Shown: positions 41,473-58,624 of the stretch, piece by piece | How positions within the stretch are numbered: position 1 is the first letter of the stretch | Layout of the letters: each line of letters starts with the position of its first letter | DNA from: an uncultured Planctomycetota bacterium | GTDB taxonomy: Bacteria; Planctomycetota; Planctomycetia; Pirellulales; PNKZ01 | NCBI GenBank assembly: GCA_963708675.1 | Contig: CAVPTO010000003.1 | Span: 4,740,719-4,804,718, forward strand | Length of the DNA: 64,000 bases | Direction: 5' to 3' | Translations under genes and position numbers: made by a program | The notes under the pieces: generated by a model | Told to the model about the DNA's origin: nothing | Database searches by the model: none | Seen by the model: only the letters and a program-made list of their open reading frames with translations

Positions 41473-42713
41473 TCACTCCACCAATCGCGCGTTGAGCCAA
41501 TCGACGTGGTCGAGTTCGTCGGCGCGCTCGGCGAAGTCGACGATGAGGCTAAGCTGCTTGCCCCCTTTGAGGTCGACGGTGACGGGCACGGGTGGCATGC
41601 CGCCGCGAACCGTGTCGCTGGCCCAGACCTGTTGCTCGTCAAGGAAAACGCGACAACCGACGCTACCGCCGCCATGCGTGGAATCGTCGATCGCCACCTC
41701 AGCCTCGAAACGACGATACGACTTGTCGAGCCGGTACGTGAGTCGCGACGCGCTGTGCATACCGAGTCCCTTGGCATACAACCGGCCGCCGGCGCGAAGC
41801 TGTGTGCCCGTGACGTTCAGATCGTCGTGATACGGCCACGCAAGCGTGAGGTAGGGAATGTGCTTGTAGCTGGCGGCATCAAGGTCGGACAGATACGTGA
41901 CGCGTCCGCCCAGCGGTTGCAGAAAAACGAGCGAGTCCAGCGGAGTTGACCAGGCTGGTTGCTTGCCCGCGAAGATCAAGGGGGAGACTTGCGCGGCATC
42001 GCTCGATGCGGTGAATGGTTGCGAGACAATGCGCGAGCCGTTGGCGAGCCCTACGATCGTGCGAGACCCGCGCTCCGATGGCTTCGCCAATAGCGCGGGG
42101 TCGAAAGCCAGCGCAGCCAACTTCATGACGTCGATTTGCACTTTGCCGACGTCGCTGGTGAGGTGAACCTGCTTGCCGTCGCACATTTCGACCGCGCCGC
42201 TCAACTCGTCGCCGTTATCGAGCACGAGCAGATCGCCCGTGCGCGGCGCGGAGGGATCTTTGCGATCGCGCTCGATGCGGCGAGCCAGGCGGTCACGGTC
42301 TTGTCGATCGGACGGCGGGTGAAACATCACGCCACGAATGGTTTCCAGCGGCAGCGATAGCCGCCCGAAGGCGGAGCGATCGATCTCCAAGCGGTCGTGC
42401 ACGATGCGCAACATCACCGGCCCTTGCCCTGTCTCGACTGGTGATTGAGCGATGATGCCGCCATCGGCGAGAAAGATCACCGGCCCGTGGGGATACTCGG
42501 CCGGGTCGCCCCATTGCACGATGTCATCGGCGCGAACGGTGCGCGACTTATCGCCTTCGCTTTTGAACGACCACGAACCGTCGGCCGCGGCGCTGGCGAA
42601 CGTCGCCTGCGAGGGTGACGCATTGATGGTAATAAGATCGCGCGGCGGCGCGGCGAGCGCGGTGGCCGCGAGCAACGACCAAGCGCACACGCATACGTTC
42701 GTCGACGTCACAC
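41473..42713 (-). CDS. Secreted protein with C-terminal NPCBM/NEW2 carbohydrate-binding-type domain
   Basis: GTG 42713 lies 9 nt after the upstream stop and is followed by the signal peptide CVCAWSLLAATALAAPP. The C-terminus GLGMHSASRLTYRLDKSYRRFEAEVAIDD...VDWLNARL matches the NPCBM pattern. Confidence 0.75.
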
Positions 42714-42721
42714 GTATGCCC

Positions 42722-43924
42722 TCAGCGTTGGAAGATCGGCAGATAATTGTTCGGCATCTGCAACACGATGCAGGCCATCGCCGTGCCGTACTCGGGGCAG
42801 ATTGAATCCATCCACGAGCCGTCGTCACGCTGCCGGACGATCAGTTCATCGCGAATGGCTGGATACCATCGCACCCAATGATCGCCGCCGGCATGCCACA
42901 TCGCTTGGACCGCGTAGTAGTGGCCATAGAAGTAATGGCTCTCGCGATTGAACACGCCGCCGCGCGGAATGCTTTCCATGAGATACTTCAGCCCCTTGTC
43001 GATCTCGGGGCCTTCGTAGATGCCGGCGCTGTACAACGCGACGACGCCGGCGGCCGAACGCGGGAACGCGCTTTGACCACCTTGGATCATGTACATAAAG
43101 CCGCCGTCGGCGTTCTGGCTTCGCTTAACGTACTGGACACACTTATCAATCGTGTCGTGCGAGACAAAGATGCCTGCATTGCGTGCCGCCCGAAGCGCCA
43201 TGACCTGGCAGATGGTAACCGAGATATCGGCATCGCGGCGCACGGGCTGATACCGCCATCCGCCGTCGGCGTTCTGCGTGTTTTCGATCAGCGCGACGGC
43301 CTTGGCCAACTTCTCGCGGACGTCGGTGCGTTGCGTCATGCCGTAAGCTTCCGCCAGGAACAGCGTCGCGAAGCCGTGCCCGTACATCGGCCCGTGACTG
43401 CCCGAGCCTGCGACGTTGATGAATCCACTTTCTTGCGTGTTCTCGAGAATGTATTCGACGCAGCGTTCGACGTTCGCCCCGTAAGGCCCGCGACCCGGCG
43501 TGCTGCCGCCTGCCATGAACGCCATACCCGCCAGTCCACACACGGCCACGTCGCGCGCGAACCCGCCGCTACCGAACGAACCGTCGTCGTGCTGTTGCGC
43601 TGCCAGCAACGTCAACCCGCGACCACTCGCGCGATCGGCTTCGGGAGTGACGAGTTCGACCGCCGTGCGCTCGGGGTCGTCCTGCACCGCGGCGGGCGCC
43701 GGAGCGACGGTGAGTAATACGGCGATAAATAGGGGCGCGGCGCCAACCCAACCCTTCTCCCTTCGGGAGAAGGTGGCCGAAGGCCGGATGAGGGAGCGCC
43801 GCCCAGGTGAAGGTTCACAACAAGCGCAATGTCGCACGCGATTGAACCCGCCCTCACCCGGCTCGCTGCGCTCGCCACCCTCTCCCGAAGGGAGAGGGGT
43901 TCCTATTGTGACGACTCCGTTCAC
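42722..43924 (-). CDS. Prenyltransferase/squalene-oxidase-repeat (alpha/alpha-toroid) protein; start codon unresolved
   Basis: Repeated QxxDGSF/GGW motifs (QQHDDGSFG, NADGGWRY, NADGGFMY, RDDGSWM). The signal-like AAPLFIAVLLTVAPAPAAV has no canonical start just upstream. In-frame GTGs exist only at 43924 (GTGA-coupled) and 43837, both within or beyond repeat copy B. Confidence 0.75.
   Translation of the reverse strand: MNGVVTIGTPLPSGEGGERSEPGEGGFNRVRHCACCEPSPGRRSLIRPSATFSRREKGWVGAAPLFIAVLLTVAPAPAAVQDDPERTAVELVTPEADRASGRGLTLLAAQQHDDGSFGSGGFARDVAVCGLAGMAFMAGGSTPGRGPYGANVERCVEYILENTQESGFINVAGSGSHGPMYGHGFATLFLAEAYGMTQRTDVREKLAKAVALIENTQNADGGWRYQPVRRDADISVTICQVMALRAARNAGIFVSHDTIDKCVQYVKRSQNADGGFMYMIQGGQSAFPRSAAGVVALYSAGIYEGPEIDKGLKYLMESIPRGGVFNRESHYFYGHYYAVQAMWHAGGDHWVRWYPAIRDELIVRQRDDGSWMDSICPEYGTAMACIVLQMPNNYLPIFQR
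43750..43901. repeat. Composite nested-palindrome element, copy B
   Basis: Order of parts: cttctccc-ttc-gggagaag, gtggccgaaggccggatgaggg, a central region, cccgccctcaccc, then ccctctccc-gaa-gggagagggg. The left inner arm is degenerate. Confidence 0.9.
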
Positions 43925-44790
43925 GGGGCGCTCCCGTTGCGTTGCTTCTCAGCCAGCGCCTTGAAGTATTCCTCGATGAGCAACTCGTACTTGGGAATGA
44001 ACTTCTCCACCGACGATTGCATCATCTCTTGTCGCAGCCGCGGAGGCAGCTCGCCCCAAATGTCCTTGAGCATTTCGCGCATCCGGGCCATGTCGGGCTT
44101 CTCGGTTTCGCGCTTCACGACCTTGCCCGAGCTGTCACGCGCCGGATCGGATGACGGTTTTTCGCGTGCCGGGCCGCCGGGCTTCATCTGCGGTTGCGAC
44201 TGCGGACGTTGATCGGCCGTTTTTTGTTGCTGCTGTTTCTGATTCTTCGAAGAAGACGACGAGGACGACTGTTGTTGCTGCTGTTGTTGTTCGAGCTCAT
44301 CGATCAACGCTTCGAGCTTGCGGACGATTTGCGTTTGCAGATCCTGCGTCTTGGCGTCGCCTTTGGCCTCGCGCATGAGTCGTTCCGCCTCGCGCATTTT
44401 GCGGTTGAGCGAGACGAGCGGATTGTCACCATCGGCTTCCGCCGTGTCGCTGGCTGCCGGACCGCTTTCGTCGCCAAGTCCCTTGAGCAACTCGTCGTCG
44501 AGCGAATCACGGGTCGCCGGCTTGGCGGGTTCGGTGGTCGTCGAATTCTTTTCAGTCGATTTCGTTTCAGCAGGTTTCGTTTCGCTCGACTTCTTCGCCG
44601 GCGATGCTTCTTTGGGGCCCTTCGTCGCGGGTTTGGCAGGCTTGATCTCGTCGGCCGGATCAGGACCGAGTCCTTGCAGCAGTTCGTCATCAAGCGACGG
44701 TTGCTTCGCGGGCGCCGGATCGGCCATCGCCGTCACGCCATGCATCAAAACGATCACAAAGGCATAGAATGTGATGTGTTTTGCCATCAT
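43921..44790 (-). CDS. Secreted low-complexity (Lys/Pro/Glu, poly-Gln/Ser) protein with conserved-looking C-terminal helical domain
   Basis: ATGA overlap with the upstream gene. Signal peptide ITFYAFVIVLMHGVTAMA. QQQQQQSSSSSSSKNQKQQQQK tract. C-terminal DIWGELPPRLRQEMMQSSVEKFIPKYELLIEEYF. Confidence 0.65.
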   Translation of the reverse strand: MMAKHITFYAFVIVLMHGVTAMADPAPAKQPSLDDELLQGLGPDPADEIKPAKPATKGPKEASPAKKSSETKPAETKSTEKNSTTTEPAKPATRDSLDDELLKGLGDESGPAASDTAEADGDNPLVSLNRKMREAERLMREAKGDAKTQDLQTQIVRKLEALIDELEQQQQQQQSSSSSSSKNQKQQQQKTADQRPQSQPQMKPGGPAREKPSSDPARDSSGKVVKRETEKPDMARMREMLKDIWGELPPRLRQEMMQSSVEKFIPKYELLIEEYFKALAEKQRNGSAP

Positions 44791-47700
44791 TCCGGCTCCG
44801 GAAGCTTGGTGTCGCGACTACGCCCGGCATCGGGGTCGAGCAGCTTCTTGAACTCCGCGTCGTCCTTACGCGAGTCGTCCTTCGGCTTGCTGAGTTCCAA
44901 CAACAAGTCGGCCAGGTCGGCTTGCTGCCCGCTCAAGTCAGCGTATTCCTCTTGTTCAGCGGGCGTCAAGTCGCGGCCCTTCGTCCCATCGAACAACTGG
45001 CGCACGCGATCGTTGATCGACTCTTGCAAGAGCTTGATCAAGCGTAGCTCAGCGACACCGGCCGAGGGTTCGTTTTGTCCTTGCTCGCCTCCCTGCCCAC
45101 CTTGGTCGCCGCCGGCCTGCTGTTTCTGTTCCTTCTGCTTCTTGTTGCCGCGTTCGAAGGCCTTGAGCATCTGTGCGAGGCGTTCGATCGCTTGCTGTTG
45201 GCGACTCTGTGTGATGTTGCCGGTGTCGCGATCGTCAAGGCGCTCGGCGGCCTGAGTCATCGTGCGCGCGGCGGCTTTGAGCGCTAGCTCGAACGCTCCG
45301 CCAGCCTTCGACAACTTGCCCGCGAGCGCCTCGACATCACCCGACAAACTACGCTGACCTTGCGCCACATCGCGAAGGCTGAGCAACTGCGCACGTCGCA
45401 GACCGCCGGTGTCGCGAGCGAGTTGATCGTAGTGCTTCGTCTCGGTGAGCAGCTTTTCTTGTTGTTGACGAAGGCCGTTCAGCGTGTCTTCCATCCGCGC
45501 CAACTGCTCTTGAGCCAGGTCGGCTTCGGCTTTCTTGCGTTGCTCGGCAAGCTGTTGCTGTGCGTCTTGCAGGTCCTGCTCCGCGGCTTCGGCCTGTTCG
45601 GCGGCTCCGGCGGCGTCGCCTTGTTCGCCGGCTTCGGCCGCAGAACCCGCCTTGCCACCTGCGCGGTCGGCAGTGCGACCGGCTTGATCGGCCTGCAATC
45701 GTTTCAGCGAGCGGGCGAATCGCTGGATTTCTTCTTCGAGTTGCTTCTGCTGCTTCGTCAGGCGTTCGAGCTCGCGTTTCTTCTCCGCGTCGTCGGGCTT
45801 CTTGGCAACGTCCTGTAACTTCTTCTTGAGCCCCTCTTGTTCCTTCTGCAACTTGTCGAGTTGCTGTTCGGCATCGCGAAGTTTCTTTACCAGTCGCCCG
45901 AGTTCGCGCTCACGTTTGTTCGACAAGATGTCGAGCAACTCGTCGAGCGTGCGCATCGACTGTTGCTGTGCTTTCGCGGCTTGGCCAAGCTGATTCTGTT
46001 CGAGCTCGCGACCGGCTTCACGCATCTGACCGCCGAGCGTTTTCTCGCGCGCGGCGTGCAATGCGTCGGCGATCGTGTCGGCCGCCAAGGGGTCGGTCTC
46101 GCGCAGCTCTTTGGCCATCTCCTCCATGCGCTGCTGGATTTTCTCGAAGTTGCGGGCCAAGTCGGACTGCCGCGAGCCGAGCTTCCGCAGATCGGCCTGC
46201 TGCTGCGGCTTCAGATCTTTCACATCTTGCGTGAGTGTGCGATTGCCCTGCTCGGCCGTGTCGCGCGCGAGTTCTTCTTGGTCGCGGCGTAGCTGTCCGA
46301 TGTCGCGATGAAAGCGGCGATAGTTGTCCCACTCGGTCAGGCTGCTCAGCAACTGTTCGAGCGATTGAATCGTGGCGTCCTGATGCTTGCCGGCCTCGGC
46401 CAACGACGGCGCGGCATCCGGTCCGGCGGGCTTCTCCGTTGCTTGCTGGTCGGGAGTCGATGGTCCTTCGACAGTCGAGGGCTTTTCGGGAGCGCTCTTC
46501 GCCGCATCTTGAGCGGTCTTGAGCGCCGCGGTGAGATCGCGCGCGACGACGGGCAAATGTTCACGGCCGACGCGTTCGAGCTCGTCCATCACCTCGGTCA
46601 GGCGGCGCTCGACGTCGCTGCTGTCGACTTTGTTGTTCTTGAGCTCGCTGAGAAGCGAAGAAATCTGCGCGGGCACCCCTTCGTTGCGATGTCCGAGCCC
46701 GCGCTCGACTTGCCGCTGCGTCAGCTCAGCCTGCTGCAGATGATCGATATCTTGCTTGCTCAACTTGCCAACTTGGTCGAGCTGGATTTCGAGGCCCGAT
46801 ACTTGGGCCCGCGATTGTTGTTCGAGCTTGAGTAGCCGCGACAGCTCGGTGAGGATCGCGCCTTGCCTTTCGGTCAGGCGATCCTGAAGTTCGTCGCGCG
46901 TAATGATCGACAGACGCCGCGGATGGCTCTTCGTTTCTACCGGTCGATAGTCGGCGACCAACGCGTACGCGGTGATTCGTGCGCCGGGTTTCAGGCCCAG
47001 CGGCGCCAGATCCCAGCGATGCTCGAGTGTACGCGATTCACCGCGACCGTTTTCGATGCCCTCGGCCGGCGGCTCGACGACTTCGGGACCTTGATACAGC
47101 GGCAGCTTCTGCTCGGGCTGCTCCGATTCGTCGCTGCGAGAGAAATTCAGATCGACGCGCTGGATGGCGAGGTCATCTTTCGCGAGCACTCGCACGGGCA
47201 CCACGGCGTCGGCAGTCACGTAAATGTCGGCGGCCGGTTCCTCGAACGACACGGTCGGGGCACGATCTTCGACGGCACGCACCTCGTAGCGAATGTCACG
47301 CGGGCCATGAAAACCTTCGCGATCGACCAGATCGAACGTGAAGAATCCGGATTTGCGAACGACGAAGCCCGGCTCCGCATCGGCGGAAATCGTGAACGCC
47401 AGTCCGTCGGCAGCAACGGTCGCGGCGATGTCGGGCTCGCCTTCGATGTGCAGCACGGCCTCGGCAATCGGCTTGTTCGTGCGTCCAGCCAAAGCGACGC
47501 GCGTGCCGATGATCGCACGCACGTGAGCTTCGCTGGCCGTGGGAGGCCAACCCGTGTAGGCCGGGTAGTGCAGCGTCGCTTCGAGCTGCTCGACCACCGG
47601 CGGCTCGACGACTTCCAAGTCGTACCAAGGCATCGAGTCGTCGTCGCCGCCTTCGGCACGGTACTTGAACGGACGGCTGACGCCTTCAATGTTCGCGACC

Positions 47701-48455
47701 ATCACGCCACGCGCGGGACGCATCGGCTCGACACGCTCGGGGGTCGAGGCGGGATCGCCTTCGTAGCGAAAATGAATGCGGACTTCCGCGGGTAAGCGAG
47801 CGCCGTTGACGTCGGACACTTCGACTTCAAACGGTTCACCGACCGCGAGACGACTATCGGGGTTGGCGATGACGAGGTTGTTCATCTTCGGCCAGGCGGC
47901 ATTGCCCAACGGAGCGGACAACCGAAGCAGCGCGGTGGCAAATGCCTGCGGCGACCAGAGCGCAGCGGCGACGAATACCGCGATGGCGGCGACCGCCGCG
48001 ACGACCGCACGCACCGTGGGACGAACGTCGACAACTTCGCTAACATCGACGTGGCCGATCTCCGCGGCGGTTTGATGAATCACCTCGCGACGCAGCATCG
48101 CCGAACCGGCTTCCGGATCGTCCGAGCGTTGGTGGAGAAACTGCACGGTGCTGGCCAGCTGATCGGAAAACTCGGGGAAGCGTTCTTCAACGCGGAGCGC
48201 CAAGGTGACGTCGCTGAAACGCGTCACGATCGCCGGCCACAGCAGTCGGTACGCCAGCAGCGCGCCGGTGGTGACGACGGCCAGCGTGCACATGATGCGG
48301 ATACCGCGATCTTCGAAATGCACCAAGAAATCGAGCGTCGACAACACGGCAACGACCGTCAGCACCGCCGCCAACATCCACGCCAGCGCGTGCAGCACCA
48401 GCAGGCCGCGAACGCGGCGACGCACGGTGTGGAGTTGTCGGAGTAACGGGTGCAT
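44787..48455 (-). CDS. Giant (1222-aa) membrane-anchored coiled-coil protein (DUF4175-like)
   Basis: Start re-set to MHPLLRQLHTVRRRVRG (ATG 48455); the upstream track extension lies in repeat copy C. Two N-terminal TM segments are followed by a beta-rich region and ~600 aa of Glu/Gln/Leu/Lys/Arg heptad-like sequence. Confidence 0.75.
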   Translation of the reverse strand: MHPLLRQLHTVRRRVRGLLVLHALAWMLAAVLTVVAVLSTLDFLVHFEDRGIRIMCTLAVVTTGALLAYRLLWPAIVTRFSDVTLALRVEERFPEFSDQLASTVQFLHQRSDDPEAGSAMLRREVIHQTAAEIGHVDVSEVVDVRPTVRAVVAAVAAIAVFVAAALWSPQAFATALLRLSAPLGNAAWPKMNNLVIANPDSRLAVGEPFEVEVSDVNGARLPAEVRIHFRYEGDPASTPERVEPMRPARGVMVANIEGVSRPFKYRAEGGDDDSMPWYDLEVVEPPVVEQLEATLHYPAYTGWPPTASEAHVRAIIGTRVALAGRTNKPIAEAVLHIEGEPDIAATVAADGLAFTISADAEPGFVVRKSGFFTFDLVDREGFHGPRDIRYEVRAVEDRAPTVSFEEPAADIYVTADAVVPVRVLAKDDLAIQRVDLNFSRSDESEQPEQKLPLYQGPEVVEPPAEGIENGRGESRTLEHRWDLAPLGLKPGARITAYALVADYRPVETKSHPRRLSIITRDELQDRLTERQGAILTELSRLLKLEQQSRAQVSGLEIQLDQVGKLSKQDIDHLQQAELTQRQVERGLGHRNEGVPAQISSLLSELKNNKVDSSDVERRLTEVMDELERVGREHLPVVARDLTAALKTAQDAAKSAPEKPSTVEGPSTPDQQATEKPAGPDAAPSLAEAGKHQDATIQSLEQLLSSLTEWDNYRRFHRDIGQLRRDQEELARDTAEQGNRTLTQDVKDLKPQQQADLRKLGSRQSDLARNFEKIQQRMEEMAKELRETDPLAADTIADALHAAREKTLGGQMREAGRELEQNQLGQAAKAQQQSMRTLDELLDILSNKRERELGRLVKKLRDAEQQLDKLQKEQEGLKKKLQDVAKKPDDAEKKRELERLTKQQKQLEEEIQRFARSLKRLQADQAGRTADRAGGKAGSAAEAGEQGDAAGAAEQAEAAEQDLQDAQQQLAEQRKKAEADLAQEQLARMEDTLNGLRQQQEKLLTETKHYDQLARDTGGLRRAQLLSLRDVAQGQRSLSGDVEALAGKLSKAGGAFELALKAAARTMTQAAERLDDRDTGNITQSRQQQAIERLAQMLKAFERGNKKQKEQKQQAGGDQGGQGGEQGQNEPSAGVAELRLIKLLQESINDRVRQLFDGTKGRDLTPAEQEEYADLSGQQADLADLLLELSKPKDDSRKDDAEFKKLLDPDAGRSRDTKLPEPE

Positions 48456-48483
48456 GAATTGACTCGACGGTCTTCGATATCCA

Positions 48484-48615
48484 AACCCTTCTCCCTTTGG
48501 GAGAAGGTGCCGCGAAGCGGCGGATGAGGGCGGGTTGAATCGGTAGGCGCTTACCAATTTAACCCGCCCTCACCCGGCGACTCCGTCGCCACCCTCTCCC
48601 AAAGGGAGAGGGGTT
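48484..48615. repeat. Composite nested-palindrome element, copy C
   Basis: Order of parts: cttctccc-ttt-gggagaag, ggatgagggcgggtt, a loop, aacccgccctcaccc, then ccctctccc-aaa-gggagagggg. Fills the spacer between the stop at 48626 and the start at 48455. Confidence 0.9.
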
Positions 48616-48625
48616 CATGTTTGTC

Positions 48626-50995
48626 TTACAACATCCCCTTCATTTTTCGCAAAACCCATTCGCCGCTCAACACACAGACGAGCAGCATTAGCACCGACCA
48701 ATGATTCCACAGCACTTTCGGCGGCAACGATTCGATCGGCACCTCCTGCCCTTGCGGCAGGTCGTTGGCGAGGCGATCGACGTCGGCCATCGTGTAGGCG
48801 TGTCCTTTGCTCTCGTCGGCGGCTCGCTTCAACTCGGCCAAATCCATTTGCACATGCTCGAACTCGCCGGGCGGCGGAACGACGCGGAAATCGGCGGACG
48901 CGGCCTTTTCTTCGAGCGCCGGCGATGTGATCCAAGCATGGTATTTGCCGTCGGCTGGGCGGCTGAGCAATCCCTCGAACACGCCGCGATGTGACGGATT
49001 GCGGGCGAGCGTGATGCGGCGATTCGGGTGCCCTTCGTGTTCGATCATCACGACGACGCCTTCGTCGTCGGTCGGCGCGAGGCGATCGTCGAGAAAGCGC
49101 ACTCGCATGCGCACCGACTCGCCACGTCGGTATTCGCGACGATCGACCGAAAGCTCGGCCGTGCGTTCCTTGCCGAGCAGCTTCGAACGCGCGAGATAGC
49201 GAAGCGTTTGGACCCAGTAGCGCGCGAAGTACACATCGCCCACACGCCATCGCCATCGCCATGTTTCGTCGACATTGTGCAGCAGCACCTTGCCAGCGCC
49301 GACGTATTGCAAGGCGATGACCGGCAACGTGCGGTCGGCCAAGCGAGCTTCGGCCAGCACGCGAGCGGCGGGCTTGAGTGCCGGCGCTTCGAACAACCAA
49401 AACAGCCCCGGCAACTTCTGCCAGATCTCGATCGTCTCCTCAGGCGTGTTGCCCATTTGCATGTTTGGCATGGCGAGGCCCAACTCGGTCGGCTCGATCG
49501 AGAACGGGCGGTCGGTGGTGATGCCGTTGTCCGGACTGCTGCCGGCCGTGAAGTCGATCGGAATCAGATTCGAGAGCGGCGTATCGCGATAGGCCATTGG
49601 CGTGAAGTGTGGGCCGGCGACGAACACCAATCCGCCCCCCTTCTGCGTGACGAAGGCGTTGAGGTTGTCGATCGCCGAGACGTTGAAGTACGTCGGATCG
49701 ACGTCGCCGAAAATGATGACGTCGTACTCGAACAACTCGTCGCGGCGCACAGGGAACACACGCAGCGCCGTGTTGTCGGTTTCCGCGTAATCGAGGTCGG
49801 CCTCTTGCAGCACGGTGCGTAGCGAGACGGTGCTGTCGCGCGCGAGCATCTGCTTGAGATAGCGGAATTCGTAGTTGGGATACAACTGCACCAACAGCAC
49901 GCGGATTTGCTCCTTGCGGACCGTGACGACGCGGTGCTGAGCGTTGTTGTCGGCGTGCACTTCCTCGGTGAGCGGGCGGACCTCGACGACGTATTCGTGT
50001 TGGCCGACCTTCGACGGTCGATACGGAATGCGAACTTTTTGCGGCTTGCCATCCGCGGCGATCGTCACGTCCGTTGCCGACAACACCTCGGGCGAATCCT
50101 TCTCGCGAAGGATCACGTGCACCGTGCGACCCGCGAGCCCCGTGGCGGTGATCTTGCATTCGAAGTTGACAAAGTCGTCGACGAACACCACTTCATCGAC
50201 GAGCAGGTCATTGACTTCGAGATCGCGGACCGGGGTTTGACTGCCGAGCGCGACGGTGAACAACGGCACGCCTTTGCGACGCGCGTAGGTGGCGGCTTCG
50301 GTGATCGGCTGGCCTTCGGTGTTGATGCCGTCGGTGAGCAGCACGAGTGCCGTGGGGGGCGTGCCGCGCAGATCGTTCAGGACGTTATGCACACCTTGAC
50401 CAAGACGGCTCGCTTGCCCCTCGGCCGTGTGCGTGCGTAGCTCGCGCTCGAGGCCGTCGAGATCGCCGCTCAACGGGCGGGCAGTGTCGGAAACGAAGTA
50501 CACCTTGAGGTTGTACTGGTCGTCGATCGAGTGCAGGAGTTTCGCCTTGTCGGCCAACAACACCGACTTGGCCTGATCGAGCCGGCTGGCGTCGGAAAGA
50601 TCGGCAGACTTGAGATGCGTGTTGACGATCTCGCGCAACTTTTCGTCGTCATAACGATCGACGATGCCCATGCTCGCCGAGTCGTCGACCATAACGATGA
50701 CATACGGCAAGCCCGTGCGCGATTGCGTGACGATGAACTGCGCGAGCATAAAGGCCACGATCGCCAGCGCCGTCAGCCGCAGAAAGATGAGCAGGCCACG
50801 TGTGAAGCTGCGCGCGCCGCCACGTTCGTGGACATAACAAACGGCGACGAGCGCGACGATGGCGACGGCAAGGATCACCGTCACCCATGCCGGCAGATAC
50901 CACGTCCCTTTCAGCGAGCGCTGAATGCCTTCGCCGGAGCCGAGCGGTTCGCTGCCAAGGAACCAGTCCACGATCGAGGAGAATGACCCGTTCAT
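48626..50995 (-). CDS. Membrane VWA-domain protein with C-terminal GATase1-like module
   Basis: Start re-set to MNGSFSSIVDW (ATG 50995, ATGA overlap). MIDAS motif VMVDDSASMG. FVTQKGGGLVFVAGP module. Terminal TM segment WSVLMLLVCVLSGEWVL. Confidence 0.8.
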   Translation of the reverse strand: MNGSFSSIVDWFLGSEPLGSGEGIQRSLKGTWYLPAWVTVILAVAIVALVAVCYVHERGGARSFTRGLLIFLRLTALAIVAFMLAQFIVTQSRTGLPYVIVMVDDSASMGIVDRYDDEKLREIVNTHLKSADLSDASRLDQAKSVLLADKAKLLHSIDDQYNLKVYFVSDTARPLSGDLDGLERELRTHTAEGQASRLGQGVHNVLNDLRGTPPTALVLLTDGINTEGQPITEAATYARRKGVPLFTVALGSQTPVRDLEVNDLLVDEVVFVDDFVNFECKITATGLAGRTVHVILREKDSPEVLSATDVTIAADGKPQKVRIPYRPSKVGQHEYVVEVRPLTEEVHADNNAQHRVVTVRKEQIRVLLVQLYPNYEFRYLKQMLARDSTVSLRTVLQEADLDYAETDNTALRVFPVRRDELFEYDVIIFGDVDPTYFNVSAIDNLNAFVTQKGGGLVFVAGPHFTPMAYRDTPLSNLIPIDFTAGSSPDNGITTDRPFSIEPTELGLAMPNMQMGNTPEETIEIWQKLPGLFWLFEAPALKPAARVLAEARLADRTLPVIALQYVGAGKVLLHNVDETWRWRWRVGDVYFARYWVQTLRYLARSKLLGKERTAELSVDRREYRRGESVRMRVRFLDDRLAPTDDEGVVVMIEHEGHPNRRITLARNPSHRGVFEGLLSRPADGKYHAWITSPALEEKAASADFRVVPPPGEFEHVQMDLAELKRAADESKGHAYTMADVDRLANDLPQGQEVPIESLPPKVLWNHWSVLMLLVCVLSGEWVLRKMKGML

Positions 50996-53178
50996 GTGGC
51001 TTTCCTTCCGAAAAAGGTCGCCATGAACGTTTCGCCGACCAGTAGCGCCATCGCTGCAACCAACAGCCAAACATGCAACCACTGTCGACGCACCACGCCT
51101 TCGATCGGCTCATCGCTCGGGTTCTGCCAATCGGTGCGATGCACGAACGTAATGCCTGCCCACACACGTTCAGCCAACTCGCCGGGGTCGAGCTTCGTCA
51201 GATCGCTCTCAGCGGGATCGACATTGACGGAGAAAAGTTCCTGTCGTCCGGCGGGCAACGTTGCCGTGTACACGCCGCTGGTCGAGGTGTCGGACAGCGA
51301 CCATGCGGTGTCGCTGCCGTCGTTGGTCATGCGAACGTTGCTGGCTTCGCCGGTCGGCAGAGCGACGCGAACCTGGCCGCCGGCGGTTTGGCCGTGCAGC
51401 GAGTCGCCGACCGCCTGGCCGACGATGGCGTTGTGCTCGACTGATTGCCCCGCGACCGACAGTTGTAACAACTCGTGAACGAGAGGCGGAAAGCTGGGCC
51501 ACAACGGCATCGCGGACCACGAGACGTCGGCGCTGGTGGCAACGAGAATCGACCGACCGCGCGCGATCGGTTCTTCGACAATCGCGGGATCGCCGTTGTC
51601 GAACGCGAGCGCTACCTTTGCCGTCGAGTCGGGCGGCACGATGAGCTTGAAGTAGCGCATGATCGGCGTCGTGAGGAGGCCGGCCTGTTCCTGGTCGCGG
51701 AAAACATTGAGCAGCGCGTGTTGATAGCCGAGCGGATTGAAATGGTACTGCCCCTGCGACGCCAACTCGCCGATGGCGGCGGGGAGCACATGGGCGCCGT
51801 CGGTGCTTTGACCGGTGAGGCGACGGTTGTAGCTGTCGGCCTGCACCTGGTCGCCGAGAAAGCAGACGATGCCGCCGCCGTGTTTGAGGAACGACGCGAG
51901 GACCGAGGCTTCGCTGGCGGTGAACTGACCGACGTTGGTGAGAAACAGGCAGTCATAACGCGTGAGGTCGGTTTCGAGTAACGCGCTTTCGGGCACGACA
52001 TCGGCGGCGACAAGTGCGCGAGTGGCGTCGTTGGTCCGCGGCGCCAGCGCGACGGCGAGATAATCGGTCGCGCCTTGGAAACCACCTTCAGGCTTGCCGC
52101 TGACGCACAAGACGCGAAGCTGATCCTTCACCGTCGCCGTGAGCCAACGGTGGTTGTCGATCGTCAGCAGATCGTTGGCCAACCGAACTTCGACGGCATG
52201 ATCGCCGGCAGTGTCGAAACGATAACCAAACGAGACGGACGCCTCGCCTTGTGGCGGCAGGTCGACAAAGTCTTGGCCGATCTTGCGGCCATCGACGAAG
52301 CATTCGACGAGCTGACGTTCGTGCGAACTGCGACCGAAGTTATGCACCTCGGCTTCGAGCGTGACATCGCGAGCCACGGTCGCAAGCGGTTCGTTCAAGG
52401 CGAGTTGCACCACGGCAAGATTTTCGCTGCCGACTTGGCCGACATCGAGCACGAGCAGTCGGGCGGCCTCGGAAAGGCGGCGGCTGCGCGTGCGGAATTC
52501 ATCGCCAGGGTCGCGTAACGATGGCGACCACGTATTGCGCGCGAGATCGGTGAGAAAGTAGACCTCGCTGCGCGTGAGACGCGGGTGTTCGCGCTCGGCC
52601 GTGGTGAGAACCTCTTCGACGACGGCGAGCGTGGCGGGCAAGTCGGCGCCGCCGTGCCACAGTTTCAGGTTCTCGATCTCTTCGAGGAAGTCGCGATGCT
52701 CGAAGGCGGGCTTGCCGACGATGACGCGCGGCGGCGACGCCATCAGCACTAACGTGAAGCCGTCGCCTTGATTGCTCTCTTCGACGATGCGAGCCGCGAT
52801 TTCCTTTGCACGATCGAAACGGCTCTTCTCCGTCGGCTTGTAGGCCATCGAGAATGAACCATCGACAACGACCACCTTGTGCGTGCGTTGGTTGCCGCCG
52901 ACGCTGAGCCCCGTTTTTTCGCAACCCGGCTCGGCCACGGCCATCACGACGAGCAGAATCGCCGCGGTGCGCATGGCCAGCAGAACCCACTGCTCGACCA
53001 TCAGGCGGCGCGAGTTCTTCTTGACGGCCGCCATCAGGTACTGCATCGCCGCCCATTGCATCTCGCGATACTTCCGCTTGCTGAGCAAGTGGATGACGAT
53101 CGGCACCCCCGCCGCCGCCGCCCAAAAGAGCATCGCGGGGTGCAGGATGAACGCGGTGATGATGGGGATGGGGAACAT
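50992..53178 (-). CDS. BatA-type aerotolerance-regulator N-terminal domain / VWA-domain membrane protein
   Basis: BatA_N-like start FILHPAMLFWAAAAGVPIVIHLLSKRK. MIDAS motif VVVDGSFSM. FLKHGGGIVCFLGD module. C-terminal TM segment. Confidence 0.85.
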   Translation of the reverse strand: MFPIPIITAFILHPAMLFWAAAAGVPIVIHLLSKRKYREMQWAAMQYLMAAVKKNSRRLMVEQWVLLAMRTAAILLVVMAVAEPGCEKTGLSVGGNQRTHKVVVVDGSFSMAYKPTEKSRFDRAKEIAARIVEESNQGDGFTLVLMASPPRVIVGKPAFEHRDFLEEIENLKLWHGGADLPATLAVVEEVLTTAEREHPRLTRSEVYFLTDLARNTWSPSLRDPGDEFRTRSRRLSEAARLLVLDVGQVGSENLAVVQLALNEPLATVARDVTLEAEVHNFGRSSHERQLVECFVDGRKIGQDFVDLPPQGEASVSFGYRFDTAGDHAVEVRLANDLLTIDNHRWLTATVKDQLRVLCVSGKPEGGFQGATDYLAVALAPRTNDATRALVAADVVPESALLETDLTRYDCLFLTNVGQFTASEASVLASFLKHGGGIVCFLGDQVQADSYNRRLTGQSTDGAHVLPAAIGELASQGQYHFNPLGYQHALLNVFRDQEQAGLLTTPIMRYFKLIVPPDSTAKVALAFDNGDPAIVEEPIARGRSILVATSADVSWSAMPLWPSFPPLVHELLQLSVAGQSVEHNAIVGQAVGDSLHGQTAGGQVRVALPTGEASNVRMTNDGSDTAWSLSDTSTSGVYTATLPAGRQELFSVNVDPAESDLTKLDPGELAERVWAGITFVHRTDWQNPSDEPIEGVVRRQWLHVWLLVAAMALLVGETFMATFFGRKAT

Positions 53179-53198
53179 GTTCGTATATGTCGACTGTC

Positions 53199-53328
53199 AA
53201 ACCCCTCTCCCTTTGGGAGTGGGTGGCGAGCAACGCGAGCCGGGTGAGGGCGGGTTATGGTGGGACGCGGCTCGCGCCACGACGCACCCTCATCCGGCCT
53301 TCGGCCACCTTCTCCCCGAGGGAGAAGG
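53199..53328. repeat. Composite nested-palindrome element, copy D
   Basis: Order of parts: cctctccc-ttt-gggagtgg, gtgagggcgggtt, a loop, ccctcatccggccttcggccacc, then ttctcccc-gag-ggagaagg. Its right half is the reverse complement of the left half of copy B. Confidence 0.9.
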
Positions 53329-53340
53329 ATGTTGTTCACG

Positions 53341-54246
53341 TCATCTGCTGGTTCTTGCCATCCTTCTTGCTAAGTACGTCGAAAGCGCGACGTCCAACGG
53401 TTGATCGGTTCGCATCTCGAAATAGTCGATGCCTTGCGTGCGGCAGCCGACGCGCACTTGTCGCTGGAATGCCTGGAACTCTTCGAGATATGCCTTGCGC
53501 AGTGAACGCGGGTCGGTGAGCACCTCGGGCAGTTGCTCGAGTCCTTTGAACATCGTGGTTTGATTGAAGGGAAACGTGATCTCGGCCGGATCGAGCACGT
53601 GAAAGAGAATCACCTCGTGCCGTCGGTGACGAAAGTGCTTGAGGCCAGCGAGCATCGAGCCGACGTCGTCGAACAAGTCGCTGAGAATCAGCACCACGCC
53701 ACGCTTCTTCAGCCGCTCGGCAAGCTCGTGAAAGATCGGACCGGTGTTCGTTTTGCTCTGCGGAACGGTCTGTTCCATCAGGTGCAGCAGTTGTTTGAGC
53801 TGCGACGGATTGCTGCTGGCGCGGACGAGGGAACGAATCTCGTTGTCGAACGTGACGAGGCCGACGCTGTCTTGCTGTTGCAGAATGAGATACGACAGCG
53901 AGGCCGCGATGCACTGCGCGTATTCGAGTTTTGAGAGCGCGACGTATTCACTCTTGTATCGCATGCTCTCGCTAGTGTCGATCAGCATGTAGCTGACGAG
54001 GTTCGTCTCTTCTTCGTACTGCTTGAGGTAGACCTTGTCGGTCTTGCCGAAGACTTTCCAGTCGACGTAGCGCAGATCGTCGCCGGGCGCGTACTCGCGG
54101 TGCTCGGCGAACTCGATCGAGAACCCTTGGAACGGGCTTTTGTGCACGCCCGAGACGTACCCTTCGACAATGCTCCGGGCACGCAGCTCGAGGCCTTGCA
54201 GGCTAGCTAACGTCTGCGGGTCTAAATATTTCTGGAAGCTTTCCAC
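53341..54246 (-). CDS. DUF58-domain protein (MoxR partner)
   Basis: Motifs GVHKSPFQGFSIEFAEHREYAPGDDLRYVDWKVFGKTDKVYLKQYEEE. Its start overlaps the MoxR 3' end by 44 nt. Confidence 0.9.
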   Translation of the reverse strand: MESFQKYLDPQTLASLQGLELRARSIVEGYVSGVHKSPFQGFSIEFAEHREYAPGDDLRYVDWKVFGKTDKVYLKQYEEETNLVSYMLIDTSESMRYKSEYVALSKLEYAQCIAASLSYLILQQQDSVGLVTFDNEIRSLVRASSNPSQLKQLLHLMEQTVPQSKTNTGPIFHELAERLKKRGVVLILSDLFDDVGSMLAGLKHFRHRRHEVILFHVLDPAEITFPFNQTTMFKGLEQLPEVLTDPRSLRKAYLEEFQAFQRQVRVGCRTQGIDYFEMRTDQPLDVALSTYLARRMARTSR

Positions 54247-55261
54247 GTGCGGGAGCCTCTTCCTCGGGAACGGGGATCACTTCGATCAGCTTCTGCACGA
54301 TCCAATCGGGCTTGATCCCTTCGGCCTCGGCGTTGAAGTTCGTCATGATGCGATGCCGCAGCACGGGATGGGCGACGGCGCGAATGTCTTCGCAGTTGGC
54401 GTAGTAGCGTCCGTGCAGCACGGCGCGAGCTTTGGCGCCCATCACCAGATACTGGCTCGCACGCGGGCCGGCGCCCCAGCTCACGTAGTCGTGAATGAAG
54501 TCTGGCACGTTCTCTTTTTCGCGGCGAGTAAGGCGAGTGAACTGCAACGCGTAGCGACTCACGTGGTCGGCCACCGGCACGCGACGCACGATGTGCTGCA
54601 GCGCCATGATCTCGTCGCCCGACAGTGATGCGGTCAGTTCGGGTCGCGTGTCGTTCGTGGTGCGCTTGACGATCGCGAGCTCTTCTTCCTCGCTGGGATA
54701 ATCGACGAACGTGTTGAACATGAACCGATCGAGCTGCGCTTCTGGGAGCGGGTATGTTCCTTCTTGCTCGATCGGGTTCTGCGTCGCCAGCACGAAGAAC
54801 GGCTCGGTCAATCGATGACGTTGCCCGCCGACGGTGACTTGCTGTTCTTGCATGGCTTCCAGCAGCGCTGCCTGCGTCTTCGGTGGCGTGCGGTTGATTT
54901 CATCGGCCAGGATCACGTTGGCGAAGATCGGCCCTCGGATGAACTTGAACGCGCGCGTGCCCGAGTTCTTGTCTTCTTGAATGACTTCGGTGCCGGTGAT
55001 GTCGGCGGGCATCAGGTCGGGCGTGAACTGGATGCGGCTAAAGTCGAGCGACAACGTCTCGGCCAGCGTGCGGATCATGAGCGTCTTGGCCAGTCCCGGC
55101 ACGCCGACGAGCAGACAGTGGCCACGCGCGAACATGGCGATCATCAGCTCTTCGACCACTTGCTGTTGGCCGATGATCACTTTCGCCAGCTCATGCGTAA
55201 TGCGGCGATACGCCTGATTCAGGCGATGGACCATCTGAACGTCGTCATCGTGCAGCATCAA
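54203..55261 (-). CDS. moxR: MoxR-family AAA+ ATPase
   Basis: Walker A GVPGLAKT and Walker B ILADEINR. Shows sensor and MoxR-specific motifs (TQNPIEQEGTYPLPEAQLDRF). Confidence 0.95.
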   Translation of the reverse strand: MMLHDDDVQMVHRLNQAYRRITHELAKVIIGQQQVVEELMIAMFARGHCLLVGVPGLAKTLMIRTLAETLSLDFSRIQFTPDLMPADITGTEVIQEDKNSGTRAFKFIRGPIFANVILADEINRTPPKTQAALLEAMQEQQVTVGGQRHRLTEPFFVLATQNPIEQEGTYPLPEAQLDRFMFNTFVDYPSEEEELAIVKRTTNDTRPELTASLSGDEIMALQHIVRRVPVADHVSRYALQFTRLTRREKENVPDFIHDYVSWGAGPRASQYLVMGAKARAVLHGRYYANCEDIRAVAHPVLRHRIMTNFNAEAEGIKPDWIVQKLIEVIPVPEEEAPARGKLPEIFRPADVS

Positions 55262-55372
55262 TCGTGTCCTCGGGTCAGGTTCGACCTTGTACGCGGATGA
55301 TTAGCCGGCTCGCTCGCGAGCCGTGTCCCACCGCCACGCGGCGACCAAGGTCGCCGGCTAAACGGGATTCTC

Positions 55373-57715
55373 TCATTTTAGACTCGCACGGGCGGCTTGG
55401 GGTTCCGGAGTTGCTTTGCCGGCGGTCGACGGTGTCTCGAATCCATAGATCGTATCGCTGGTAATCGCGAGGAAGTACCCGTCGGCCACCACGAGGTTTC
55501 CGCCGCCGGCGTTGTGGGCTCGAAGCATCTCGATCGGCGCTCGCGATTCGTCCCCCGTGTGGGCGTCGAAGACGTACACTCGCTCGCGCGTCGGCCAATA
55601 CACCTTGCCATCGGCGAGCATTCCGCGTCCAAACCCGCCTGGCTTGTCCATGGGCCACGGCAAACGCGCGGGCTTACCCGTGACGATATTGAACCACCAG
55701 ATTTTGTCGCCGGTAGCAATCAGGTTGCCGCCGCTCACACCGAGCAAATGAATGGTGTCCTCAGCGAGTGTTGTTTCCCAACGCAGCTGACCGGTGCCGG
55801 CCTCGATCGCCAGAATGCGCGGGCTATCCGACGGAGCAGCGAAGACCGTATCGTTGTCGTAAATGCACGGGTTCAAGTCGCGATAGAAGTGCGGAGGCCG
55901 TCGAGTCAGGTCGCCGCCTTGAGCGCGTGGGTAACGGCGAATCCATTTGATCCGCCCATCGCGACCATCGACGGCCGCCACGGCGCCGAGGTTCGTGTTG
56001 TAGTAAAGGACGCCGCTGTGCAGACACAGCAAGTTGTGCGTCACTTCTTCCATTTGACCTTGAGCAGGCGTCTCGGCGCTGCAGATCCATCGCTGCCAAC
56101 GCAGCTTGCCGGTCGTCGCGTCGAGGCACGCGACGTGCGCCTGCGGATGCACGTCACTGCGACGCAGCGCGACGTAAAGGTTCGGGCCATCGCAAATCGG
56201 CGATCCTTCGAAAGCCCATTTGTCGTCGAGCGGAAACGACTGCCGCGAGTCCCACACGGCGCTACCTTCGCGGGCCACGTCGAGACAGATCAAATAGCTG
56301 ATCGCGTTCGGATACCGTTGATCGTTCGGATTGCTCGTTACGGGCGAACCCATGCGAGCGTACACCTTGTTCTCGTGTACGGTCAGCGTGTGACGCGGCA
56401 CGCCGAGTCGCGAACGACCGCTGTTGTGCGACGACTGCAGATCAATATCTTCGTATTGCCACGCGGCCTGGCCCGTTTTCAGGCTGAACGCCGAGATTTC
56501 GTGCTGATTGTTGATGAGCAACAAGTCGCCGACGATCGCGGGATGGTAGCTCAGCGGCTCGTGCCGATCTTCGGCGATGCGGCGCGGATACGGGCCGGTT
56601 TCTGGCGCAGATGTTTTTGGAAGTTGAATCTTCCACTTCGGCGAGCCGATATCGATCGGGCCTCGCGCGACTTTATTGCGATCGGCAGCGCCGGCGAACG
56701 TGGGCCAGTCGCGACTTGTGCTCGCGGCGGGCCATTGCTCTCGGGACTTGAGCAATGCCGCAAGCGCATCGGCCATGTTCGTTTCGCGACCGCCGAGGCG
56801 TCCGCGTGCGTCGGGATACTGTCGAGCGAACTCGGCAAACGCGGAGAGGGCCATCGGCTCCGGCGCTTCGAGAATCGAGAGCAACACCTGTCGGGCACGG
56901 ACGTCGGCGAGCGGAATGTCGCTGCCTGGATAGGTGAGTCTCGTCGGCCCTTGTCCGTGTTCACGGAAGACACGGGCGAGGGCTTTGAGTTGGCCGTCGC
57001 TCCAGCGCTCGCCGGCGGGCAGTGGCCGTAGCACGAAGAACTGGCCGTCACGGTCGGTCGATTTCACATAATCGCGATCGAGCAAAAGGGCATCGGCGTC
57101 AGCGAGGTTCGCCGCGCCGCGAAGCTTCTGATAGTCGGCGGACGGCACGTCGAGCGGCGGTGTCTCGATCAGCCGGTCCCACCAGGTTTGTGCCGCGCCG
57201 GCATCGCCACCTTCCAGAGCGAACTCGCCGAGCGTGAGCAGCGCGTCGTCGCCTTTGCTGCTGCAGAACAGGCGATCGACAAGATCCTCCAACGGCCTCG
57301 GATCGTGTGTCGACATCGCCGCCGCGTAAAGGCTGTCGGCTTCGGGATCGACGCGCTGCCGGTAGAGAGCCAAGGCGTCGGGCGGCAGACGGCTAATGAA
57401 CAGTTGGCAGTATTCGCGGACGCCGACATATCGCCAGCGGTCGGCAGGAACCACTTTCGTCCCGGGGCTTTCCATGACTTGTCGTAACGTCTCGACCGCT
57501 TCGTCCCACTGCCCATCTTCGAGAAAGGCGCGGACTCGTTCGAGATGCTGCTTCACGGCGGCGTCGACCTCGTCGACGTGGACCGAGCCGGAGAGCTCGA
57601 AATGATTGCCGTAGAAGTTGCCGAACTGGGCGGTGGAGGTGGCGGCGATCGGCCCTAGAGCTACCAGGGTCGCGAGCAGCGGCCCGATGAGGCCGACTCG
57701 GCGCACCAAACCCAT
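55373..57715 (-). CDS. Secreted protein with helical-repeat N-domain plus PQQ-like beta-propeller
   Basis: Signal peptide LLATLVALGPIAATSTAQ. The N-terminal ~330 aa are helical and TPR-like. The C-terminal ~420 aa have repeated propeller blades (GKLRWQ, GRIKWI, GQLRWE, DGKVYWPT). Confidence 0.8.
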   Translation of the reverse strand: MGLVRRVGLIGPLLATLVALGPIAATSTAQFGNFYGNHFELSGSVHVDEVDAAVKQHLERVRAFLEDGQWDEAVETLRQVMESPGTKVVPADRWRYVGVREYCQLFISRLPPDALALYRQRVDPEADSLYAAAMSTHDPRPLEDLVDRLFCSSKGDDALLTLGEFALEGGDAGAAQTWWDRLIETPPLDVPSADYQKLRGAANLADADALLLDRDYVKSTDRDGQFFVLRPLPAGERWSDGQLKALARVFREHGQGPTRLTYPGSDIPLADVRARQVLLSILEAPEPMALSAFAEFARQYPDARGRLGGRETNMADALAALLKSREQWPAASTSRDWPTFAGAADRNKVARGPIDIGSPKWKIQLPKTSAPETGPYPRRIAEDRHEPLSYHPAIVGDLLLINNQHEISAFSLKTGQAAWQYEDIDLQSSHNSGRSRLGVPRHTLTVHENKVYARMGSPVTSNPNDQRYPNAISYLICLDVAREGSAVWDSRQSFPLDDKWAFEGSPICDGPNLYVALRRSDVHPQAHVACLDATTGKLRWQRWICSAETPAQGQMEEVTHNLLCLHSGVLYYNTNLGAVAAVDGRDGRIKWIRRYPRAQGGDLTRRPPHFYRDLNPCIYDNDTVFAAPSDSPRILAIEAGTGQLRWETTLAEDTIHLLGVSGGNLIATGDKIWWFNIVTGKPARLPWPMDKPGGFGRGMLADGKVYWPTRERVYVFDAHTGDESRAPIEMLRAHNAGGGNLVVADGYFLAITSDTIYGFETPSTAGKATPEPQAARASLK

Positions 57716-58249: not shown

Positions 58250-58624
58250 ATGCAAATGTTAACGCACATCCGCCGGGCTCTCGCACTGCGTTGCCCTCGC
58301 TGCGGGCAAGGCAAGCTCTTCCGCGGCTGGTTCACCATGTACGAGCGCTGCTCGCATTGCGACCTGCTGTTCCAGCGCGAGCCCGGCTACTTCCTCGGTT
58401 CGATCTACTTCAACTACGGCATCACCGCTTCGGTGGTGACCGTGACCTATTTCGCGCTCTTCTTCACGACGGATATTCCGCCGCGCGTGTTGCTGTGGTC
58501 CCTGGTCGCGTACTGCGTCGTGTTCCCGCTTTGGTTCTTCCGCTATGCGCGAGCCTTGTGGATGGGCTGCGATGAATGGCTCGACTCGCAGAGCGAGGAA
58601 CCTTCAAACGGCCGACGCCAATGA
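58250..58624 (+). CDS. DUF983-domain membrane protein
   Basis: Zinc-ribbon-like CPRCGQGKLF...CSHCDL is followed by two TM segments, the DUF983 layout. Confidence 0.8.
   Translation: MQMLTHIRRALALRCPRCGQGKLFRGWFTMYERCSHCDLLFQREPGYFLGSIYFNYGITASVVTVTYFALFFTTDIPPRVLLWSLVAYCVVFPLWFFRYARALWMGCDEWLDSQSEEPSNGRRQ

Follow-up and report, generated by a model that had tools for sequence, protein, structure and literature searches.

MoxR-DUF58-VWA (Bat-type) operons, long unexplained in their clients and mechanism, are found in many bacterial phyla and influence virulence, the tolerance of stress and the integrity of the envelope. The present analysis concerns a related cluster of nine consecutive open reading frames (ORFs), lettered A to I in reading direction, on the minus strand of a 64,000-nucleotide stretch of DNA (the window) from an uncultured planctomycete of the Pirellulales (assembly GCA_963708675.1, contig CAVPTO010000003.1, positions 4,740,719 to 4,804,718); the cluster spans window positions 41473-57715. 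Among the described systems, the Bat operon of Bacteroides and spirochaetes comprises MoxR, DUF58 and BatA-BatE, and its summary in PMC5700661 includes neither a DUF4175 protein nor a toroid, NPCBM or PQQ component. The operon RL3499-RL3502 of the alphaproteobacterium Rhizobium leguminosarum is reported to be required for an intact envelope and for normal cell morphology (PMC3893208, and a paper title cited in PMC5118466). In the RavA-ViaA and CoxD-CoxE pairs, a MoxR AAA+ ATPase and a cofactor with a VWA domain and metal-ion-dependent adhesion site (MIDAS) mature a dedicated protein complex (PMC3893208). Finally, the MoxR-vWA ternary conflict systems combine a chaperone/co-chaperone pair with extra components, some of them with a beta-propeller; ATP-driven reorganisation coupled to peptide binding by the vWA domain has been proposed for these systems (PMC7159879).

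Against this background, the planctomycete cluster is probably, with room for doubt, a conserved variant of the MoxR(MRP)-DUF58-BatA-type envelope system, chromosomal and vertically inherited, whose products most likely form one functionally linked cell-envelope apparatus. The evidence comes from the conservation of the gene neighbourhood among relatives, from the persistence of the same families in rearranged distant clusters, and from the domain content and predicted topology of the proteins.

Gene order and conservation of the cluster

The ORF listing and the Pfam domain calls agree with the gene order that had been proposed from the sequence alone: a PQQ propeller protein (A), a MoxR ATPase (B), a DUF58 protein (C), two VWA membrane proteins (D and E), a DUF4175-like stalk protein (F), a secreted low-complexity protein (G), an exported toroid (H) and an NPCBM protein (I), all on the minus strand. 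Relatives were collected by a scan anchored on E, with one genome per species (80 loci), and searched by tblastn with A-I. E had 806 homologues, named as Pirellulales/Planctomycetia, and the full colinear A-I cluster was found in 30 of the 80 species-level genomes, many of the others being interrupted by contig ends; with 30 complete colinear copies, its conservation lies far above chance. When presence is counted only in E-anchored loci with enough flanking sequence, the genes upstream of E are recovered in 57/60 (D), 52/56 (C), 45/51 (B) and 40/48 (A) loci, and those downstream in 53/58 (F), 48/54 (G), 43/50 (H) and 39/50 (I). The genes F to I thus accompany E about as regularly as MoxR does. 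The sequence-only reading had named synteny that stops after the VWA genes as the outcome contrary to its proposal; as the counts for F to I demonstrate, this is not the situation in most relatives.

The median identity to the window proteins is 74.9% for MoxR (49 loci), 72.6% for H (46 loci) and 72.2% for DUF58, followed by E (53.4%), D (49.9%), F (43.7%), A (43.6%), I (41.0%) and G (36.9%). Judged by these values, the toroid H is the most constrained exported component, level with MoxR and DUF58 and far above D and E.

Distant lineages, with 24-30% identity to the window in E and 55-70% in MoxR, were obtained from the context of remote F relatives and from a metagenome scan anchored on remote E, using hidden Markov models built from the orthologues. 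Two of these loci (L121/L122) have the order A-H-B-C-D-E-F-F-G-I with every product confirmed by Pfam, including a second F half that matches DUF4175 with 45.8 bits; others are shuffled into HBCDEFG (L123), BCDEAHF (L119), BCDEAHFG (L126), HBCDEF (L141), BCDEHF (L146) and BCDEFGH (L098). The propeller gene A has moved to the inside of the cluster in L081, L119, L126 and L121. The retention of the same families through such reordering is a classical sign of functional coupling. Each of the 85 H-family ORFs in the 2.37 Mb of retrieved sequence has core genes at a distance of no more than 3.5 kb; elsewhere in this sequence the family does not occur. The claim that the downstream genes travel with the MoxR-DUF58-VWA core is thus borne out by the synteny of close relatives and by the rearranged clusters of distant ones.

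Three gene junctions are tightly coupled, as had been read from the sequence: B and C overlap by 44 nt (the TAG stop codon of B ends at 54203, the GTG start codon of C lies at 54246), and ATGA motifs join D to E (50995-50992) and F to G (44790-44787). These junctions are conserved in relatives: 34/49 loci have a B/C spacing of -44 or -50 nt, 55/67 a D/E spacing of -4 or -1 nt, and 21/48 an F/G spacing of -4, -1 or -8 nt; the median gaps at the other junctions are 93 nt (E/F), 95 nt (G/H), 56 nt (H/I) and 46 nt (A/B). The stop-start coupling that had been proposed for the last four genes therefore holds for F/G and fails for G/H and H/I, which are usually 50-150 nt apart. In the window, the H/I gap is 10 nt on direct reading (TGA of H at 42724-42722, GTG of I at 42711), one more than the 9 nt first given. 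The start of H is uncertain and may lie anywhere from 43717 to 43924; a possible GTGA at 43921-43924 that would couple G to H results from an extension of the ORF through a copy of a palindromic repeat (43748-43907), and this coupling is most likely not real, since the extension consists of repeat DNA and relatives have a median G/H gap of 95 nt. The start codon of B is either TTG (55261) or ATG (55258). Scans for promoters and terminators were uninformative, with two promoter-like sites observed against 3.1 expected. Downstream of I follows a convergent apgM-like gene and upstream of A a divergent DUF983 gene; the convergent orientation of the next genes marks I as the end of the cluster.

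Several observations weigh against a single apparatus. One locus (L016) carries A-E followed by unrelated genes, L065 and L066 carry A-F only, F-G-H-I in L082 have no MoxR core in the 10 kb around them, MoxR and DUF58 are missing from L101 (A-H-H-D-E-F-I), and lone E-like genes occur in L031, L042, L156 and L157. In most genomes G/H and H/I are not tightly coupled; the very stable palindrome in three spacers of the window cluster could break or process the transcript; and the fold of H, according to Foldseek, fits enzymes and binding modules equally. Since loci with either part alone exist, the system behaves as a pair of modules, A-E and F-I, which can separate but as a rule stand together. 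A single stoichiometric assembly, as the sequence-only reading had suggested, is not supported, given that conserved coupling is limited to B/C, D/E and F/G and that A-E and F-I are sometimes found apart. Going one step further, the locus could combine two independent, often neighbouring systems, MoxR-DUF58-D-E (with A) and F-G-H-I, that share regulation or location and form no single machine. Such an arrangement, for which the separate modules (L082; L016; L065/L066) and the non-overlapping E/F spacer with its strong palindrome would speak, is unlikely without being negligible: in nearly all lineages, even the most distant ones (EBCDF, BCDEHF), D/E are followed by F-type genes; H and A take up places among the core genes (A-H-B..., ...E-A-H-F), a mobility not easily accounted for if the modules were unrelated; and the alphaproteobacterial MoxR-DUF58 operon would already include a gene of the DUF4175 type.

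As observations in their own right, the lone E-like VWA genes are full-length, and in L031 (region 6788-12382) the copy lies directly 3' of multihaem cytochrome-like genes. In L081, with the order BCDAEFGI, the toroid is absent and three HtrA-like genes follow; the region 16422-20174 of this locus contains the NPCBM gene and then three overlapping Trypsin_2-PDZ (HtrA-like) protease genes.

Core, stalk and exported proteins

The ATPase B (54203-55261) is a MoxR-type AAA+ protein of the MRP/AAA_3 type; it matches AAA_3 (218 bits, cut-off 27) and AAA_lid_2 (62.8 bits) above the Pfam cut-offs. The adjacent DUF58/VWA cofactor gene that characterises MoxR systems is represented by C (53341-54246; DUF58 141 bits), a cytoplasmic, VWA-like protein with a DTSES motif of the MIDAS type, whose overlap with B is conserved as described above. 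The first gene, A (55373-57715), encodes a protein with a signal peptide, a helical, TPR-like N-terminal half and a C-terminal PQQ_2 (BamB-like) beta-propeller (80.6 bits). The combination of MoxR, VWA and propeller recalls the MoxR-vWA-beta-propeller conflict (defence) systems of Kaur et al. 2020, which occur in planctomycetes (PMC7159879); B exceeds the cut-off of the Pfam family bpMoxR with 48.5 bits, and the propeller gene adjoins it. Assignment of the cluster to these systems is nevertheless scarcely credible, and is effectively refuted by composition: the AAA_3 score of B far exceeds its bpMoxR score; the propeller is of the PQQ_2 type and carries a signal peptide where a cytoplasmic propeller would be expected; the vWA-effector/EAD fusion of these systems and effector, VMAP, iSTAND or FtsH components are absent from the cluster; PADLOC returned nothing apart from coiled-coil noise; and across dozens of genomes the cluster is present in one copy and keeps its synteny with housekeeping genes (apgM, SCO1/DUF420).

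The protein D (50992-53178) is a BatA_N-VWA inner-membrane protein (BatA 54.5 bits, VWA_2 48.4 bits, TIGR02226 70.6 bits) with the order typical of BatA, an N-terminal double transmembrane (TM) segment of the BatA/TIGR02226 family ahead of a VWA domain whose MIDAS motif is of the form DxSxS. Its full layout, as read from the sequence, comprises the BatA_N double TM, a periplasmic VWA domain (DGSFS), a CARDB-like Ig domain, a GATase1-like region and a C-terminal TM helix. The second VWA membrane protein, E (48626-50995; VWA 26.8 bits, DDSAS), lacks a BatA_N match; it has two N-terminal TM helices and is anchored at both ends like D. The MIDAS motifs originally named for both proteins, DGSFS and DDSAS, are in place. 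In D as in E, the N-terminal TM pair encloses a K/R-rich loop and the C-terminal TM helix is followed by a basic tail, so that the VWA-Ig-GATase1-like bodies are predicted to be periplasmic. For D, this prediction matches the experimental topology of the BatA-type protein BB0173, which has three TM helices and holds its VWA domain in the periplasm (PMC5700661).

DUF4175 proteins have N-terminal TM helices, followed by a long extracytoplasmic low-complexity or helical region. The long protein F (44787-48455) agrees with this architecture in its alignment and its model: the AlphaFold2 (AF2) model of residues 1-620, with a predicted local distance difference test (pLDDT) score of 87, begins with a TM hairpin (3-77) and continues through a helical stretch (82-141) to the third TM helix (145-180), beyond which lie three beta-sandwich (Ig-like) domains (190-517) and then continuous helices; the periplasmic part beyond the Ig-like domains is a helical/coiled-coil stalk of ~700 aa. 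Three TM helices, predicted from the alignment and from the AF2 model, replace the two that had been assumed for F. The best-conserved stretch of the family, AGSxxLRR, is located in the predicted cytoplasmic segment of ~65 aa and offers a possible route from F to MoxR/DUF58. The match of the window F to Pfam DUF4175 (PF13779) remains sub-threshold at 19.4 bits (cut-off 27.3; model positions 184-339); relatives pass this cut-off, P0269 with 40.5 bits over the same model positions (184-339) and the second F half of L121, whose score was given above, over positions 524-759. NCBIfam, including TIGR02302, gave no match for F, G, F+G fusions or distant relatives, and Foldseek with the F model returned generic Ig/FN3/MG arrays only.

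The following gene G (43921-44790) encodes a secreted, low-complexity poly-Q/S protein without a Pfam family. Its conserved C-terminal domain, WGELPxxxRxxM...PKYELLIEEYF, reappears as the C-terminus of single long F-type ORFs in nine relatives (L050, L061, L070, L071, L084, P0249, P0252, P0258 and P0268); F is cut mid-protein in L081 and L121, and the F C-terminus is fused to G in L082. As F and G are fused into one ORF in several genomes, they form one unit: they are the two halves of one DUF4175-like protein, with G as its split-off C-terminus. The Sec-type signal peptide of the window G agrees with a periplasmic location of the F C-terminus. In distant lineages, the G-equivalents (L081, 14140-15234; L121, 17541-18836) have TPR repeats ahead of the conserved G C-terminal domain (TPR_6 27.9 bits; YbgF-like, E 9e-4), which recall the TPR proteins of Bat operons.

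The exported protein H (42722-43786) was modelled by AF2 as a single (alpha/alpha)6 toroid, one domain of ~330 aa (pLDDT 78). Matches to SQHop_cyclase_C (42.1 bits), SQHop_cyclase_N (27 bits) and Prenyltrans (36.1 bits), together with Foldseek, identify the toroid of QW-type repeats found in class II terpene cyclases; the catalytic DxDD motif is absent from H and from 24 aligned orthologues, and H lacks the two-domain beta-gamma architecture of class II terpene (squalene-hopene) cyclases. The terpenoid-cyclase assignment of the sequence-only reading therefore stands at the level of the fold and fails beyond it. Structural similarity at a TM-score of ~0.6 is shared alike by the polysaccharide hydrolase MmpH, AprG, GH76 mannanase, cellobiose/glucose 2-epimerases, squalene cyclases and the TED domain of complement; single-domain myxobacterial cyclases are also found. 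The orthologues of H have invariant His, Asp, Cys and Tyr residues, and roughly half of them (24/45) carry an RRxFL-type twin-arginine signal, by a crude pattern that includes some false matches; the rest have Sec-type signals. The export route appears to switch by lineage in the L003-L077 alignment, where closer relatives have S/N-RRxFL twin-arginine signals, and Thermoguttaceae-like and other relatives Sec-type signals. In the window, the N-terminus of H is partly encoded by the palindromic repeat element. An A2M-like reading, with MG-like domains in F and a TED-like H, was considered and rejected (TM-score ~0.13); TED structures turn up for H as weak fold matches only, and the thioester motif CGEQ is not found in H, which has a conserved C-x-E-[YF]-G without the Gln instead.

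The last protein, I (41473-42711), is exported and combines an N-terminal region of ~270 aa without assignment with a C-terminal NPCBM domain of the CBM51 type, well above the Pfam cut-off (127.4 vs 23.9 bits); a PDB sequence search matches this domain to the CBM51 modules 2vmg/2vmh and to GH110. With this neighbour, H could be a carbohydrate-active (alpha/alpha)6 enzyme, hydrolase- or epimerase-like and targeted by I, in a periplasmic glycan-processing system for which the MoxR-VWA proteins serve as assembly or insertion chaperone. The carbohydrate-active enzymes among the top Foldseek matches (MmpH, GH76, AprG, 2-epimerases), which score as high as the squalene cyclases, the occurrence of CBM51-type modules in glycosidases, the extreme conservation of H with its invariant residues, and the twin-arginine signals in about half of its orthologues are all compatible with this enzyme role. 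It is improbable all the same: in sequence H resembles squalene-cyclase repeats only, a GH catalytic motif was not identified in it, the Sec-type signals of the other orthologues speak against an obligatory cofactor, and L081 lacks H altogether. Even more doubtful, to the point of being very improbable, is that H works as a terpenoid cyclase or prenyltransferase in a cluster that modifies envelope lipids such as hopanoids; the cyclase and prenyltransferase families score above their cut-offs, NCBIfam indicates similarity to TIGR01787, and squalene-hopene cyclases and single-domain myxobacterial cyclases are among the structural matches, but H is a single ~330-aa domain without DxDD, exported by the twin-arginine or Sec route, and the PDB-sequence profile search retrieves squalene cyclases only, at a marginal 1e-5. 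Among the abundant planctomycete proteins annotated as "prenyltransferase/squalene oxidase repeat" there is, in H, one that is exported and extremely conserved and for which a cyclase function is unlikely.

To return to the functionally linked envelope apparatus, gene linkage and topology are supported, and from these we infer a physical assembly, its ligand and the role of ATP as follows. B and C would form a cytoplasmic ATPase/co-chaperone pair, with D and E as inner-membrane proteins anchored at both ends and their VWA/MIDAS-Ig-GATase1-like bodies turned toward the periplasm; F would be held by three TM anchors, exposing its conserved ~65-aa segment to the cytoplasm and three Ig-like domains and the ~700-aa helical stalk to the periplasm, and A, G, H and I would be exported. 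MoxR/DUF58 may spend ATP to assemble or remodel the membrane subunits via their cytoplasmic loops, and the periplasmic MIDAS sites of D and E may grip acidic ligands that belong to the F/G stalk or to proteins associated with it. The toroid H and the CBM51 module of I could sit on this stalk, with A as a propeller scaffold, and these proteins would make contact with an envelope glycan or protein layer; the outcome would be a tether or scaffold that keeps the envelope organised in the enlarged planctomycete periplasm. A bolder version, a trans-envelope machine of all nine families at the level of the phylum, in which a cytoplasmic MoxR/DUF58 motor controls, from the inside, integrin-like periplasmic VWA proteins holding a ~100-nm DUF4175 stalk tipped by the toroid and a CBM51 lectin, is a long shot. 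If true, it could be the basis of an unassigned planctomycete structure, such as a periplasmic tether, a surface-fibre anchor or part of a polysaccharide-capture apparatus, and would give Bat-type MoxR systems as a whole their first concrete set of clients.

Spacer repeats and neighbouring genes

A palindromic repeat of ~140 nt occurs in four copies in the 64 kb, in both orientations; three are located in spacers of the cluster, between C and D (53198-53328; RNA fold -82.9 kcal/mol, z -6.5), between E and F (48482-48621; -108.5 kcal/mol, z -13.8) and between G and H (43748-43907, overlapping the 5' extension of the H ORF), and the fourth outside the cluster (16115-16254). The repeat is a nearly perfect palindrome with terminal hairpins CCYTCTCCC-N3-GGGAGARGG, and Rfam had no match to it or to any other part of the window. 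Since it is absent from the equivalent spacers of related loci, it is interpreted as a genome-specific insertion and not as part of the system; it looks like a miniature inverted-repeat transposable element (MITE) or repetitive extragenic palindromic (REP)-like element that favours intergenic sites. A distinct, GC-rich hairpin of 32 nt occupies the A/B spacer (55334-55365), 8 nt after the stop codon of A; a second copy with 84% identity is found at 39405-39436, and the two copies lie 8-17 nt 3' of the minus-strand stop codons of A and of a metallo-beta-lactamase-fold gene. This hairpin folds no better than shuffled sequences; it may be a terminator-like or mRNA-stabilising element. The initial impression that one repeat element fills the three longer spacers is accordingly correct for C/D and E/F, and has to be replaced by the 32-nt hairpin for A/B.

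Downstream of the cluster, the plus-strand apgM-like gene (PhosphMutase and Metalloenzyme domains) is broken into two ORFs that overlap and differ in frame (40250-40822 and 40755-41453), either as a frameshift pseudogene or through a sequencing error; in L084 it is intact, as a single gene of 401 aa. Further away on the plus strand (28363-33722), the gene of a TPR-rich protein of 951 aa with a Peptidase_MA_2-like region precedes two ORFs, 31352-32428 and 32196-33722, which overlap in different frames and may represent one frameshifted gene. A GATase1-like paralogue had been placed here (31565-33722) as the third of its kind; this segment consists of the two overlapping ORFs and shows no Pfam match and no BLASTP similarity to E, and a third GATase1-like paralogue, as far as sequence comparison can tell, is not real. 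Upstream of A are genes for SCO1/SenC (60028-61383, minus strand), DUF420 (59555-60031, minus strand) and the divergent DUF983 (58250-58624, plus strand), a cytochrome-oxidase-assembly-like neighbourhood that is syntenic in 15-18 related genomes.

Comparison with described systems

RavA-ViaA and CoxD-CoxE were taken as the generic model for B and C; these pairs act on cytoplasmic or membrane respiratory enzymes, whereas the presumed clients in the window are envelope proteins of the same cluster. The MoxR-vWA ternary conflict systems share with the window a MoxR and vWA pair that is accompanied by extra conserved components; in contrast to them, the window cluster is free of effector and EAD domains, it has a MoxR of the AAA_3/MRP type, its propeller and most of its partners are periplasmic, and its syntenic context is housekeeping-like.

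The Bat operon resembles the window cluster in its MoxR, DUF58 and BatA_N-VWA genes, in the same-strand arrangement of a multi-gene cluster, and in the periplasmic orientation of the VWA domain, which is established for BB0173 (PMC5700661) and predicted for the window. The BatB/BatC/BatE TPR-SH3 proteins and BatD that define this operon have no counterparts here: Pfam found no BatD or SH3 families among the nine window products, and TPR is sub-threshold in A and weak in the distant G-equivalents.

The rhizobial operon RL3499-RL3502 likewise combines a MoxR AAA_3 ATPase with DUF58 and large membrane proteins. Its two membrane proteins would be of the BatA_N/TIGR02226 and DUF4175/TIGR02302 types and would correspond to D and F; if so, the extension of the core by F is not new. 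The window F differs in falling below the DUF4175 cut-off and in having no TIGR02302 match, and the window cluster adds the second VWA protein E, the split-off G, the toroid H, the NPCBM protein I and the PQQ/TPR protein A.

In the literature searched on MoxR, DUF58, DUF4175 or BatA in planctomycetes, the toroid, NPCBM, PQQ and split-G proteins were not found as parts of a system, and no description of the extended composition was found, in agreement with the claim that it is undescribed. The combination of MoxR, DUF58 and BatA is already known; the toroid, NPCBM, PQQ and split-G additions appear to be the new part. The cluster names candidate periplasmic partners that travel with the ATPase, namely a DUF4175 stalk, an (alpha/alpha)6 toroid, a CBM51 module and a PQQ propeller, and these make the question of what Bat-type systems act on testable, by experiments on pairwise interaction, localisation and deletion, in a phylum whose unusual envelope is still little understood.

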